A DNA stretch of 64,000 nucleotides from the NCBI GenBank assembly GCA_951406725.2, contig CATOCA020000001.1, positions 10,168,001 through 10,232,000 on the forward strand, read 5' to 3'. The position numbers are program-made. The stretch is from Octopus vulgaris (taxonomy: Eukaryota). Shown one piece after another: positions 24,101 to 44,700 of the stretch. The first letter of the stretch is position 1, and each line of letters begins with the position of its first letter.

Positions 24101-27100
24101 TACACTCAAAAGTCTGATAAATGAATACCAACGTTCGTTCCCAGATAAAGAGAAAGATTATTTATGCAGCTCTGTAATGAAAGAGAGTAATTTCTATGGA
24201 TCACCCAAGATCCACGAATGCTCCAAAATGCAAGGATCAGCATATAAAAGTACTAAGACCTACTGACATCAAATTGAGACCAACAGTTGCTGGACCTTGA
24301 GCCCCAACACAACAACTGAGCCATCTTTTGGATATACTCCTCAAACCGTTATGCCCATTAATGGCCAGCTATACCCGAGACGATAAGGATTTCCTCAAGC
24401 ACATTCCACCCACTGTCCCAGAACGTACTATACTTAAAATATTTGACTAATCTTTGTACTAATACATCACACTTTGGGCCTGGAAGCAATCAAACACTGG
24501 GTAGAAAAACATAGCGGACGGATGGACGAACGCTTCAAAACGCATTTCCAAAGACACACGCCGGGAACTAGAAGACAACACCTTTAGATTCGATAATAAA
24601 CTATATCGACAGGTAAAAAGAACACCACTACCGGGACGAGGTTCGCACACATTCTCGAACCCAGAGGTAGATATACATATGTGTGTATGTGCGTATATAT
24701 GCATACATGTGCGTGTATGTGTGTGGATGTGTTTGTTGGTACATAGAGACGCGAAGCGGATACTCGAGGTTGTGCAAGTCAAGAAGGAAATAAACATGAA
24801 ACGGCTGTCACATTGAGACATTCTTCTCCTCCTGCTGTTTCTTCTTCTTCTTCTTCTTCTTCTTCTTCTTCTTCTTCTTCTTCTTCTTCTTCTTCTTCTC
24901 CGTCTTCTTCTTCTTCTTCTTTTTCTTCTCCCTCCTCTTCTCCCTCTTCGTCTTCGTCTTCTTCTTCCTTTTCTTCTTCTTCTTTTTCTTCCTTTTCTTC
25001 GTCTTCTTCCTTTTCTTCGTCTTCTTCTTTTTCTTCTCCCTCTTATTCTTCCTCTTCTTCTTCTTCTTCTTCTTCTTCTTCTTCTTCTTCTTCTTTTTCT
25101 TCTTCTTTTTCTTCTCTGTACTTTCTGCTTCGTCACTGGTCTCCCTCTTTTCCATTCTCTGCCAATTCTTCCTCTTATTCTCATTCTCCTGCTCTTCCTG
25201 CTCCTTCTGCTGCTACCCCCAGCTGCCCCTCCTCAGTCATCCCTTCCTTTGTCCTCCTCCTAACATCCCCGCCTCTCCACATCCTCCGCCTCCTCCACCT
25301 CCTCCGCCTCCTCCACCTCCTCGTCAATTCTCCTTCCTCTTTCTTCTTCTTCTTCTTCTTCTTCTTCTTCTTCTTCTTCTTCTTCTCCTACTCAACCTTC
25401 TTCTCCTCCTTCTTCTTCTTCTTCTTTCTTCTTCTTCTTCTTCGTTATCTTTCTTCTTTTTCTTCCTTTCATTCTGAAGTCAAAGTGTTTGATGTCGCAT
25501 CACAAATATTTTCCATATAATCTATTTTACTCTTTCTTTACTGCTATAGATATCTGTACGAGAACAACATTGCAACCATCAAAGAAGGTACATTCACGGG
25601 GCTTTCAAATTTAAAAGAATTGTAAGTTCGTTTAATTTCTTGATACTATTTTCCGAAAGTAATAATTGATGCTGATATATAAGCTCACAAATGTATAAAA
25701 TTTCAGACTGCGCCAAACAAAATCAATTCGAATTTGTAGAATGAACAAGATTTAGGAAGATACAAAGAGAATATGAGAGATTGAGACAATGTGAAAGAAA
25801 GAGAGAGAATTTGAGACAGAAAATGAAATAATAGGAAAAATATAATGTTCCTTTATTGTAGTTGCTTTGTTTCAATTCGCATCTCAATAACTCATTTTTG
25901 TTCCCCAAATTTCAATGATTTTGATATGAATTTGTATTAGAAATGGTAACGTTTGTGAGTGTACATGTTTGCATCAAATATTTTTAGCTGAAGTATATGT
26001 GTATGTTCATATATAAGTGTAGTTCTGTGTGAAATATGAATATATTATTCCTTTATTTTATATTTTGCATCTTCCTCCATTTCTTATTTCAATATTCTCC
26101 TTCGTGTTTCGATATTATCATTCAATTTCGAATTTTGTCATTCACTTCACGTTATTTATGTAATAGACTAACTGAAGTGGAAGCGGAAAATATATATTCG
26201 AATAATATAGTCACATACATTCTATCTGTAAACCTGAAATACTTACTGTACTTGTAAGCTGGAATATTTGGCCTGATACAATGAAACAGCTGATATATTT
26301 CTTGTGAGCGTGTGTTTTCTAATATTCTTGTGACAATGAAGCGATATGAAATAAATAATCTCTCTCACCATATTTCCCTAAGGGTGAGTGGGAATATGTG
26401 TGATGTGAGTGTGCATACCGCATTCCGTCGTTGTTACTATGAATATAAGAATGCGTATGAGTGCATTTGAATATGTTGATTTCTGATTCCGTATATTCCC
26501 TGATTTTTCAGCCATGTCTTCTCGCCCAAAATTTATCGATCTATCCTTGAATTATTTCCTGATATTTTGAGAACATTTTCAGTTTCATCATGAACGCCAT
26601 GATTTTCAATGTGTCTTCTTCTTCTTCTTTTTGTTCTTTTTGTTGTTGTTGTTGTTCTTCTTCTTCTTATCTTCTTATCTTCTTCTTCTTCTTCTTCTTC
26701 TTCTTCTTCTTCTTCTTCTTCTTCTTCTTCTTCTTCTTCTTCCTCTGCCTATCCTCCTGCAACTCCTCCTGCTCCTTCTTTTTCTTCTATTCATCTTCTT
26801 CTTCTTCTACTTCTACTTCTTCTTCTGCTTCTTCTTCTTCTTCTTCTTCTTCTTCTTCTTCTCCTTCTTCCTCCTCCTCTCCTCCTTCTCCTCCTCCTCC
26901 TTCTTCTTCTTTTCTTCTTCTTCTACTCCTCCACCTCCTCATCCCCCTACTACTCTTTTTTCTATTTTTTCTTCATCTTCATCTTCATTTTCTTTTCATA
27001 ATTCTCTTCCTATCAATCTCCCTCGATCTCCTCCTCCTTTCTCTTCTTGTTATTCTCCTCCTCACATCCCTGTCCCCCTACTGCTCCTTTTTCTTCTTCT

Positions 27101-41735: not shown

Positions 41736-44700
41736 TTCTTCTTCTTCTTTATCTTCTCCCTCTCCTTCTTCTTCTTCTTCTTCTTCTTCTTCTTCTTCTT
41801 CTGCTTCTTCTTTTCTTCTATCTTTCTTGTTCCCTCCTCCCCCTACCCCTCCTTCTTTCTACTTCTAATGTTTTCTCTTCTCCTTCTCCGTCTTATTCTT
41901 CATTTTCTTATTGTAATTCTCTTCCCCTCCTCCTCCTTTTTCTTCTTGTAATTCTCGCCCTACCCCTCCCCATCTCCCTCCTTTTTTCTTCTTCTTCTTC
42001 TTCATCTACTTTTTCTCACTCTTCTTCTGCTCCTCCTTCTTCTTCTACTTCTCCTTGTCTTCCTCCTTCTTTTTATTTTTCTACTTCTACTCCTTCTTCT
42101 TCTTCTTCTCTTCCAGCTCCTCCTCCTCCTCATCTTTCTTCTTCTTCTTCTCCTACTTCTTCTGCTCCTTCAACCTCCTCCTTTTTCCTCCTCCTCCTTT
42201 TTCCTCCTCTTCTTTCTTCTTCTTATTCATCTTTTTTCCTTCTTCTTCTTTCTCATCCTCTTCCTATTCTTCTTCCACTTCTTCTTGTACTTCTCATTTT
42301 ACTTCTCATTTCTCTTCTCCTTCTTTTTCTTCCCCTTCTTCTTCTCCTTCTACTTCTCCTCCCCGTCTTCCTCCTTCTTTTTCTTATTCTTCTCTTTCAT
42401 CTTTATTTTTCTTCTTCTTCTTCTTCTTCTTCTTCTTCTACTTTGTACTTCTTCATCTACTTCTCTCTCCCTCCTCTTTCTTCTTCTTATCTTCTTTTTG
42501 TTATTCTCCTTCTCCTCCTCCACATCCTCCTTCTTCTACTTCTTTTACTTCTACTTCCCCTTCATACTCCTCCTCCTTTTGTTTCCTCTTCCTCCTTCTC
42601 CTTCTTCTTTTCTTCTTTTTCTTCCTATTCGTCTTCTTCTTCTTCTACTATTACTCCTACTTCTTCTTCTCTTCTTTCTTCTTCTTCTTTTTCTTCTCCT
42701 TCTTTTCCTCTTTCTTCTTCTTGTAATTCTTACTCTCCCACTCCCCCCTCATCCTCATCCTTTTTCTTCTTCTGCTTTTTCTTTACTTAATTCTACTTTC
42801 TACTTCTTCATCTACTTCTCCTCCTCCTCCTCCTCCTTCTTCTTCTTCTTGTCTTCTTTCTTTTTATTCTCTTCCTTCTTCTCCTTTTCCACCTCCTTCT
42901 TCATTTCTTTCTTCTTTTTCATGCTTCTTCTTCTTCTTCTTCTTCTTCTTCTTCTTCTTCTACTTCTTCTCCTTCTTCTTCTTGTTTCTCTTCTACTCCT
43001 CCTTCTTCTTCTTCTTTTTTCTTCCTCTTCTTCTTCCTCTCATCACCCTCATCCTCCTCTTTTTAATCTACTACATCTTTTTCTTTTACTCTACCCTCTG
43101 CTCCTCCTCCTATTTCCCTCCCCCTCAATGCATCTCCTTGTCCTCCCCCGTCCTCATCCTTCTTCTATTCCTCCCCTCCTCCTCCAACTCCTCCTTTTCT
43201 ACTGCTTCTCCCCTCCTATTCTTCCTTGTCTTCTCTTTTTCCCTTCCCCCTCCACCACTTCTTCTTCGGATTCTACTTCTCCTTAATCTCTTTCCTGTTC
43301 CTCTTCTTCTTGTATTATTTTCCTATAATAAGTTTTAGCTACTATTTTGTTTCACGTTGTTCTGTTGATTCTGTGATACCGTGTGGTTATTTATACATAC
43401 TTCCACCGAAATAAATGTTTTGTTATATTTGTTGTAGTCTTTGTTGTTGTTGTTGTTGTTCTTCTTCTTCTTCTTCTTTTTCTTCTTTTTCTCCTTCTTC
43501 ATCTTCTTCTCCTTCTTCTTCTCCTTCTTCATTTTCTTCTTCTCCTTCTTCTTCTTCTTCTTCTTCTTCTTCTTCTTCTTTTTCTTCATTTTCTTCTTCT
43601 TCATCTTCTTCTCTTCTTCTTCTTCTTCTTCTTCTTCTTCTTCGTCTCCTTCTTCTTCTTCTTCTTCTTCTTCTTCTACTTCTTCTTCTCCTTCTTCTTC
43701 TTTTTCTCCTCCTCTACTTCCTCTTCTTGTTTCTTTCTTGTTGTTCTTCTTCTATTTCTTCTTCTTCTTCTTCTTCTTCTTCTTCTTTTCTTCTTCTTCT
43801 TCTTCTTCTCCTTTTCTTCTTCTCATTCTTGTTCTTCTTCTTCTACTTCTTCTTCTTCGTCTCCTTCTTCTTCTTCTTCTTCTTCTACTTCTTCTTCTTC
43901 TACTTCTTCTTCTTTTTCTCCTCCTCTACTTCCTCTTCTTGTTTCTTTCTTGTTCTTGTTCTTCTTTTCTTCTTCTATTTCTTCTTCTTCTTTTTCTTCT
44001 TTTTCTTCTTCTTCTTCTCCTTCTTCTTCTTTTTCTTCTTCTTTTTCTTCTTCTTCTTCTTCTTCTTCTTCTTCTTCTTCTCCTCCTCCTCCTCCTTCTT
44101 CTTCTTCTTCTTCTTCTTCTTCTTCTTCTATGTTAGCACTGAGGACATCCTCAATAAAATGAGTATTTTTGGTCACTCCAAGTTCTTCACATGTTGTGTA
44201 GTGGACACTAAGGACTTGATTCCCTCTACCCATCTATTGACATCGATTTTGCTGGAGTATAACGTAATGAGATTGTCTGTGAAATGTGAAGTGAGGTCAA
44301 CACGCGTGATCCGTGTCTCGTTCTTAGACTATATATTCTACCCCGCCAGATCACAGATTCTTAGACCACCTACCATCACTTCAGCAGTAAATAAATGCAC
44401 CACTGAGCGCTGGTGTGGCTTGACCCTACCCACCCAACTCCCTGAGAACAACAATTAGGAGAAAGGAAGGATTGCACAGGCAGTAAGAGCTAGCGTAAGA
44501 ACCACCTTGAAGAACCACAGACAAAAGTATAACTAGTTTAGTTTAGTTTAATTTTTTGTCTCAAAAAGCAAAAGCAAGACCATGTAGAGGGACAGGGCGT
44601 TATGTACAGGGAGGGTGGTCATACAAAGAGTTCAGGCTATTTCTGGTCAAGAGAGACTTTGAACCGAGCGGTCGTCGGCATCTTCACTATCTCGTCCGGC

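Follow-up and report, generated by a model that had tools for sequence, protein, structure and literature searches.

We analyzed a 64,000-nucleotide (nt) stretch of Octopus vulgaris DNA (GenBank assembly GCA_951406725.2, contig CATOCA020000001.1, forward-strand positions 10,168,001 to 10,232,000; hereafter the window), in which a set of short exons, each encoding a single leucine-rich repeat (LRR), lies in tandem within duplicated intron units. The array is rich in pyrimidines on its sense strand. Guanine-cytosine (GC) skew ranges from −0.28 to −0.86 in ten consecutive 2-kb windows between 24001 and 44000, compared with −0.25 to +0.26 elsewhere, and this asymmetry results from six degenerate (CTT/TCT)n tracts of 0.8–3.1 kb. 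The features of the array and its exons are as follows.

24823..44130, + strand: whole array, a pyrimidine-rich (sense strand) block with duplicated exon-intron units, recognized from GC skew and repeat copies
25387..26690, + strand: unique sequence of unit 1, comprising the exon with about 160 nt on its 5' side and about 1.07 kb of intron
About 27622–28925, 30324–31627, 33670–34862 and 37921–38758, + strand: blocks equivalent to unit 1
25550..25621, + strand: cassette exon U1, 72 nt, (L)YLYENNIATIKEGTFTGLSNLKE, with AG before and GTAAGT after it; LRR_8 E = 0.0015, 18.7 bits
27785..27856, + strand: cassette exon U2, 72 nt, ALQENNIATIKEGAFTGLSNLKE; LRR_8 E = 0.00053
30487..30558, + strand: cassette exon U3, 72 nt, ALWGNNIATIKEGAFTGLSNLKE; LRR_8 E = 0.00034
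33833..33904, + strand: cassette exon U4, 72 nt, ALYENKISTIKEGVFTGLSNLKT, with the most diverged scaffold; LRR_8 E = 0.0017
38084..38155, + strand: cassette exon U5, 72 nt, YLGSNNIATIKEGAFTGLSNLKE; LRR_8 E = 0.0002
39920..39992, + strand: older "GLGN" LRR exon, 73 nt, its register shifted by one base through an extra A in the A6 run 39952–39957
46754..46825, + strand: older "FLYY" LRR exon, 72 nt, same phase, FLYYNLIETYEDGAFLFLPSIAT, donor GTAAGC; LRR_8 E = 0.096
26614–27700, 28849–30388, 31553–33619, 34863–37977, 38814–39593 and 41360–44129: six degenerate intronic (CTT/TCT)n tracts (Tandem Repeats Finder)

The duplicated units comprise five copies of a unique block of about 1.3 kb with (CTT)n tracts in between, at start-to-start spacings of 2235, 2702, 3346 and 4251 nt (direct-repeat families D10–D18). 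By blastn, copies of unit 1 are confined to 25200–42544 within the window. Unit borders fall in (CTT)n tracts of 780–3115 nt, and most differences in unit size arise because these tracts differ in length; the block at 37921–38758 is additionally truncated about 600 nt past its exon. All six tracts have a period of 3 and 68–69% matches, with 259–1028 copies. In the five-unit alignment, introns of unit pairs diverge by 3.5–6.1%. Thus, the five 72-nt LRR exons in near-identical duplicated intron units reported by a first-pass annotation of this DNA were all located, with intact splice sites.

Two further observations concern the unit introns. A 23-nt inverted repeat is present at 30970–30992 and 31131–31153, with arms 138 nt apart and 83–91% complementary, and it recurs at equivalent sites in other units (e.g., 28268–28291, 34316–34338/34477–34499 and 38568–38590); it could form a hairpin or mediate pairing between units. 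Additionally, the least diverged bin of the alignment (mean pairwise divergence 0.017) corresponds to 25922–25981, which is 372–432 nt past the exon start, and its equivalents. Just 5' of that bin, U1–U4 are identical over about 100 nt (about 25840–25945), which is not clearly beyond chance.

Each of the five cassettes has a pyrimidine tract and AG acceptor, a GTAAGT donor and an open frame free of stop codons. Each is read as one base, 23 codons and two bases, with phase-2 introns on both sides. The first base of U2 is T, giving the split codon TT|T (Phe); otherwise, the split codon is TT|A (Leu). From U1 to U5, the peptides begin with YLYE, ALQE, ALWG, ALYE and YLGS and continue with NNIATIKEG(T/A)FTGLSNLKE; in the fourth cassette, U4, the peptide is NKISTIKEGVFTGLSNLKT. 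By the codon table, U1 and U2 share 20 of 23 residues, as do U2 and U5; U4 and U5 share 16 of 23. All five fit (L/F)xLxxNxIxxIxxGxFxGLxNLxx(L), the typical LRR consensus with a 24-residue period. The Pfam model LRR_8 was matched by all six exons searched (the five cassettes and FLYY) at 12.9–21.5 bits; these scores lie below the gathering cut-off of 27, which is out of reach when exons are searched singly, with one 23-residue repeat set against a 61-column model. In the Protein Data Bank (PDB), the best matches of U1 are LRRC15, IGFALS, LRRC4C, LGR4 and repebodies derived from variable lymphocyte receptors (VLRs), with LRIG1, the Nogo receptor and TLR3 also matched. A search of the ESM Atlas with U1 returned only generic LRR clusters (top score 0.96), labeled as arthropod or unrecorded and uninformative as to family or taxon. 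By these sequence criteria, the cassettes are "typical" animal-type LRR exons.

The differences among the cassettes are concentrated in a patch at the start of the exon. In the five-unit alignment, 11 of the 13 columns at exon nt 1–13 are variable versus 73 of 708 flanking intron columns (Fisher P = 1.9e-9); the remainder of the exon (nt 14–72) varies at 10 of 59 columns (P = 0.13 against the introns). Among 768 sliding 13-nt windows, the maximum of 11 variable columns falls exactly at exon nt 1–13, while the non-overlapping maximum is 6. Mean pairwise divergence is 0.50 in the patch versus 0.017–0.096 in 17 other bins. Counted as minimum changes, the patch holds 15 in 13 nt versus 76 in 708 nt of intron, a 10.7-fold excess, and the excess is present in all ten unit pairs (P from 6e-11 to 0.012). 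This focal excess of change is robust. It bears out the first-pass annotation, which had described changes gathered in the first codons against a nearly invariant remainder of exon and introns. Its count for 25550 versus 27785 was likewise reproduced, with six differences, all amino-acid changing and five of them in the first 10 nt. For 30487 versus 38084, the seven differences and the six within the first 13 nt stand, while the seventh is a synonymous AAA/AAG change.

The position of these changes in the repeat was read from the motif LxxLxLxxNxI. L1-x2-x3 corresponds to L-K-E at the 3' end of the preceding exon, L4 is the split codon, codons 1–4 are x5, L6, x7 and x8, and codon 5 is the Asn N9. 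The variable residues are x5 (Y/A), x7 (Y/Q/W/G) and x8 (E/G/S). Every comparison in the codon table shows non-synonymous change at codons 1, 3 and 4, whereas L6 (codon 2) changes only synonymously and N9 (codon 5) never changes. From U1 to U5, the resulting triplets are Y-Y-E, A-Q-E, A-W-G, A-Y-E and Y-G-S. The xxLxLxx strand is described as forming the concave ligand-binding sheet in VLRs and other LRR proteins (PMC5395774, PMC3900441). The motif register thereby supports the prediction that x5, x7 and x8 lie on the concave face. The earlier claim that variation occupies the ligand-binding face holds for these three positions of the strand, x2 and x3 being mostly constant.

The units also bear signs of exchange with one another. 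The 28 parsimony-informative sites fall into 8 different, mutually incompatible bipartitions of the five units, while a single tree of five sequences can accommodate no more than two. In alignment columns, bipartition "24" runs through 306–375, "14" through 621–732 and "34" through 711–858, and "35" lies in the exon. Within the 13-nt patch, all four combinations of codon 1 (Tyr/Ala) with codons 3/4 (Tyr-Glu/other) are present. The incompatible bipartitions are spatially clustered. The units are therefore mosaics, the products of unequal exchange or gene conversion. This pattern lends good support to recombination or conversion in the germline at this array, in agreement with the germline shuffling proposed in the first-pass annotation. 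Since such exchange homogenizes the flanks, the 13-nt island of difference is all the more striking.

Beyond the five units, the array contains further partial copies.

40941..42544, + strand: copy lacking an exon, made up of the unit intron's second half and its microsatellite (blastn, 77.5% to 26161–27671)
43094..43824, + strand: copy of the GLGN-exon flanks without the exon-bearing part of about 410 nt (blastn, two abutting matches)
35902..35985, + strand: relic of the 5' end of a GLGN-type exon in the intron after U4, with its acceptor CAG changed to CAT

The segment 40400–40941, 3' of the 73-nt exon, is homologous to 24823–25362, 5' of U1 (blastn, 82.4%), and runs straight into the copy at 40941–42544, so that the cassette exon and about 800 nt are gone there. 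Similarly, 39600–39833 matches 43094–43329 (82.6%), and 40243–40711 matches 43328–43824 (78.8%). The relic aligns to 39860–39942, i.e., 60 nt of intron and the first 23 nt of the GLGN exon, with no similarity further on. The relic exon and the exon-less unit copies indicate that exons have been both gained and lost at the array. The breakpoints lie in or beside (CTT)n tracts, and GAA/TTC-type repeats are recombination-prone; unequal exchange within these tracts is therefore the presumed mechanism of amplification. The spacer between U3 and U4 holds an additional exon-less copy (32647–33619), consisting of about 175 nt from the end of the unit intron (91% to 31451–31625) and microsatellite.

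A tandem layout of this type might also be produced by the assembly, if only one or two real units existed, their haplotypes or reads had been placed in tandem and the (CTT)n repeats had misled the assembler. The degenerate 0.8–3.1-kb microsatellites between units are hard to assemble, and the 73-nt exon contains one probable homopolymer error. However, the five units are 3.5–6.1% apart in unique intron, each with its own triplet and microsatellite length, and five distinct versions are impossible from two alleles. Moreover, the higher-order structure of relic exon and exon-less copies is internally consistent. We consider an assembly artefact very improbable.

The two older exons extend the picture downstream. 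The GLGN exon is 73 nt long rather than 72, and its LRR register is broken. Its frame 1 reads GLGNNKISRIEKRDVSRPSQLRDI, its frame 2 gives the LRR-like tail EMFQGLHNLET, and its first half in the cassette frame reads GLGNNKISRIEK. Its inclusion would bring a stop codon 10 codons into the FLYY exon, whereas the frame remains open without it. The extra A may be a homopolymer or assembly error. Just 3' of this exon, 40027–40058 is 78% complementary over 32 nt to the 3' end and donor of U4 (33881–33912), which may reflect chance in an AT-rich region. The FLYY exon, at 46754–46825, lies outside the coordinates given in the first-pass annotation. It had no PDB match at E ≤ 10, and its assignment is based on length, phase and the pattern xLxxNxIxxxxxGAFxxLxxI, so that support for an LRR is weak. 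The earlier exon numbering implied an upstream exon 1, which was found neither among open same-phase segments nor by LRR patterns. A local hidden Markov model built from the six exon peptides and run against the six-frame window gave its next match after the six at E = 0.19. LRR regular expressions and AG/GT-bounded same-phase open segments likewise yielded no further LRR exon in the 64-kb window. On the + strand downstream, there was no long non-repetitive open reading frame (ORF) outside transposable elements among the listed ORFs of at least 90 amino acids (aa), which likewise included no hinge/seven-transmembrane terminal exon within the window. Rfam and tRNA scans of the window returned no matches.

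Because every cassette is 72 nt long with equal intron phase on both sides, any subset of them would splice in frame. The cassettes might therefore generate a repertoire, through alternative or combinatorial splicing and/or through a number and order that differ between individuals, so that one locus would encode many binding surfaces, comparable to brown-algal ROCO genes, Dscam or fungal NLR repeats. Several features are consistent with this. Skipping the 73-nt exon leaves the frame open, splice sites and flanks are near-identical across cassettes, and the mosaic units with exon birth and death mark an unstable locus. The introns additionally carry kb-long UCU-rich tracts, which we take to resemble binding sites of PTB-type splicing repressors. 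A precedent is provided by Ectocarpus, whose LRR exons are described as alternatively spliced (PMC11378527). In contrast, tandem LRRs normally all enter one solenoid, and constitutive splicing is simpler. Docking/selector pairing, as would serve mutually exclusive splicing, was considered but found no support. No such complementary elements were present among the longest 25 of 91 and 25 of 72 inverted repeats, which are TA/TG palindromes, pairs of purine and pyrimidine tracts, and the unit-internal 23-nt repeat. Overall, we regard a repertoire-generating role as doubtful, with the chances well against it.

The coding changes were next compared by the Nei-Gojobori method as proportions of non-synonymous (pN) and synonymous (pS) differences. 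In scaffold codons 5–23, pN is 0.054 and pS is 0.188. For four units, with U4 dropped post hoc, the scaffold shows one non-synonymous versus four synonymous changes (P = 0.010). In the patch, non-synonymous change exceeds the neutral proxies (scaffold synonymous, 0.19; introns, about 0.05) 2.6- to 10-fold. In the two closest pairs, codons 1–4 hold 4.0 non-synonymous and 0 synonymous differences and 5.5 and 0.5, respectively. Since none of the five copies has lost its frame, its splice sites or the structural Leu and Asn, the focal excess is likely attributable to positive, diversifying selection.

On this evidence, the explanation we favor, and consider probable, is a recent amplification of a single-LRR exon within a gene, whose copies are homogenized by conversion and diversified by selection at three ligand-facing residues in each repeat. 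The locus would represent the middle of an animal gene that encodes an LRR protein of the "typical" (extracellular, LRR_8-like) type and in which one symmetric 72-nt phase-2 exon, equivalent to one repeat, was recently amplified to five tandem copies. Amplification and exon loss would most likely have proceeded by unequal crossing-over in the kb-long intronic (CTT)n tracts. Gene conversion between units, to which the mosaic pattern points, would hold introns and scaffold codons about 95% alike. Positions x5, x7 and x8 change at about ten times the intron rate, and we read this as selection for differing side chains. With constitutive splicing, the product would carry five repeats in a row that share a scaffold but each have a binding triplet of their own.

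Several results weigh against this explanation. In codons 1–4, pN is 0.485 and pS is 0.58, giving a pN/pS of 0.84 on about three saturated synonymous sites, too few to be informative, so that the dN/dS above 1 anticipated for the variable codons was not obtained. For the two closest pairs combined, the non-synonymous excess has a Fisher P of 0.02 or 0.17, depending on rounding. Across all five units, the scaffold counts are 6 non-synonymous to 4 synonymous (P = 0.16), and purifying selection is consequently not shown unless U4 is dropped. Variation touches three of the five concave x positions, x2 and x3 being K and E in four of the five copies. The sample consists of five copies from one assembly, counts are small, and the pairwise tests are not independent. 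Furthermore, the array shows decay: the next exon (73 nt) is frameshifted, two unit copies lack an exon, and one exon survives as a relic. In the 64-kb window, we found no LRRNT- or LRRCT-like cysteine motifs on the + strand, no convincing ATG-initiated first exon with a signal peptide, and no transmembrane segment or further exon. The receptor (immune, allorecognition or chemosensory) proposed in the first-pass annotation thus lacks a counterpart here, as neither signal peptide, LRR caps, transmembrane segment nor signaling domain was found in the window, although the gene may continue past its ends.

Some of these results would also suit a decaying or dead exon array, i.e., a pseudogene in a recombination-prone microsatellite region whose patch arose by a block-wise mutational process without protein selection. 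One such process would be conversion by short tracts templated on diverged paralogous LRR exons elsewhere in the genome, with the conserved flanks serving as anchors. The adjacent 73-nt exon is frameshifted and, if included, leads to a stop in the next exon; the relic has a destroyed acceptor, and exon-less unit copies are present. Within the patch, variability at synonymous positions matches that at non-synonymous positions (pS 0.58 vs pN 0.485), and the patch is itself recombinant, with all four combinations of codon 1 and codons 3/4. Fragments of transposable elements stand on the array flanks, and no other gene parts were found in the window. Nevertheless, all five cassettes have kept an open frame, AG with a pyrimidine tract and a perfect GTAAGT, the structural Leu (codon 2) and Asn (codon 5) never change amino acid, and scaffold changes are mostly synonymous in four units. 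A conversion tract ending at the exon start and at the Asn codon in every copy is hard to obtain without selection, and the extra A lies in a homopolymer run, where it may be an assembly error. A dead array is accordingly judged unlikely.

Outside the array, the window contains remains of transposable elements, including reverse transcriptase (RT)-like fragments and a long interspersed nuclear element (LINE)-like retrotransposon.

24200–24680, + strand: degenerate RT-like fragment, identified by eye from translation
44637–44972, − strand: degenerate RT-like fragment, identified by eye from translation
44971–45255, + strand: degenerate RT-like fragment, identified by eye, with no RT match in Pfam
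8878–11944, − strand: LINE-like retrotransposon with a 558-aa frame (RVT_1, E = 3e-29) and an upstream 219-aa frame (Exo_endo_phos, E = 3.5e-6)
60276–61072, − strand: ORF with a GIY-YIG nuclease domain (60276–60728; Pfam E = 1.8e-6) and a second, adjoining ORF

The possibility that the array had split a single transposon, with 24200–24680 and 44971–45255 as its two halves or as copies of it, was rejected: blastn detected no similarity between the flanks, and the one fragment scanned with Pfam gave no RT match. The GIY-YIG ORF pair is presumably the 3' part of a Penelope-like element. A dispersed repeat family occurs at 8374–8820, 13630–14136, 14355–14675 (− strand) and 62052–62381 (+ strand); its translations share FLPHSHAYACVFMYKSIYRMNRTNKYLNN…TTLWLLGTKCSPTNDRQE, which suggests an unclassified interspersed element. 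ORF pieces at 2009–2341 (+ strand) and about 17845 (+ strand) have a motif of the type …KYKDLEIEISKMWKLKTKTIPVVIGALGMI… in common, which we assume to be the conserved C-terminal tail of invertebrate non-LTR (long terminal repeat) retrotransposon proteins.

Among known systems, the nearest to the array is that of the brown-algal ROCO genes, whose LRR exons are reported to be 72 nt long, in phase 2 and shuffled, with positive selection on the concave face (Zambounis et al. 2012, PMC3341825; Teng et al. 2024, PMC11378527). As in those genes, one LRR is carried by a 72-nt, 24-residue phase-2 exon within a repetitive, duplicated exon-intron structure (PMC3341825, PMC11378527), and the exons are frame-neutral and thus permit alternative splicing (PMC11378527). 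The comparison with Ectocarpus drawn in the first-pass annotation is therefore apt as regards the 72-nt phase-2 exons and the positive selection on the concave face described there (PMC3341825, PMC11378527). However, ROCO proteins are characterized as cytoplasmic LRR-ROC-COR GTPases of a stramenopile, with 222 exons analyzed (PMC3341825, PMC11378527). Here, there are five young "typical" extracellular-type animal repeats with LRRC15, IGFALS and LGR4 as best PDB matches; (CTT)n on the kb scale fills the introns, and the variable sites are limited to three adjacent x positions. A Pfam scan of selected ORFs detected no ROC-COR domain in the window. With regard to selection at concave sites, the array offers a 10.7-fold excess over introns and a pN/pS of 0.84 from five sequences, which are too few for site models.

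The lamprey and hagfish VLRs are similar in that they are described as combining a conserved LRR framework with variability on the xxLxLxx concave strands (PMC3900441, PMC5395774). The cassette also matches VLR-derived repebodies in the PDB. In VLRs, the germline cassettes are fragments that undergo no splicing and are copied somatically into an incomplete gene in a deaminase-dependent manner. In contrast, all five cassettes here are complete exons with an AG acceptor and a GTAAGT donor, and no LRRNT or LRRCT was found in the window. Because the cassettes are complete exons with canonical splice sites, their diversity, if used, would stem from germline duplication and splicing.

In the WD, ANK and TPR repeats of fungal NLRs, there is a comparable combination of high internal conservation, concerted evolution by repeat exchange and few hypervariable positions on the binding surface (PMC4986451), with positive diversifying selection reported at few positions per repeat (Dyrka et al. 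2014, PMC4986451). Those repeats differ from the present ones in their folds and in lying within continuous coding sequence, and their repeat-number polymorphism is described as demonstrated (PMC4986451). Glycoprotein-hormone receptors and LGRs, for their part, possess a succession of small LRR exons (69–81 bp) with phase-2 introns (PMC4536197, PMC11378527), so that the exon architecture of the array is nothing unusual among animal LRR genes; U1 has LGR4 as one of its best PDB matches. Unlike the cassettes, those exons are old and diverged with unrelated introns, and neither recent tandem copies nor focal hypervariability is described for them (PMC4536197). Finally, the Dscam clusters likewise consist of equally long exons duplicated in tandem, with differences mainly at binding residues, but they are described as immunoglobulin-domain half-exons chosen singly via competing RNA structures (PMC11378527, PMC13428168). 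Neighboring cassettes of the present array, in contrast, can be included together with the frame kept.

Germline exon amplification with diversification of the binding face is documented for brown-algal LRRs and, on other repeat folds, in fungi. In a literature search that left most subscription journals uncovered, we found no animal, mollusc or cephalopod one-LRR-per-exon array of such a kind, and the closest animal system of LRR diversity is the somatic VLR mechanism. The array is at a very early stage, with introns about 95% identical, so that homogenization is cleanly separated from the 13-nt island of difference, making it a compact test case for the origin of new binding specificities by exon duplication. 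At its most far-reaching, the locus could belong to an invertebrate, possibly cephalopod, germline LRR-cassette system, in which microsatellite-driven breeding of exons, a converted scaffold and selected triplets would together supply a combinatorial recognition repertoire, by alternative splicing in frame and/or by copy numbers that vary among individuals. From the sequence features described here, we hold this to be speculative and rather improbable; if true, it would constitute a splicing-based animal counterpart of the VLRs and the brown-algal ROCO receptors. If the cassettes are alternatively spliced or polymorphic in number, a mollusc would have a new way of generating receptor diversity; if they are neither, the array would still provide a clear example of adaptive remodeling of an LRR surface.

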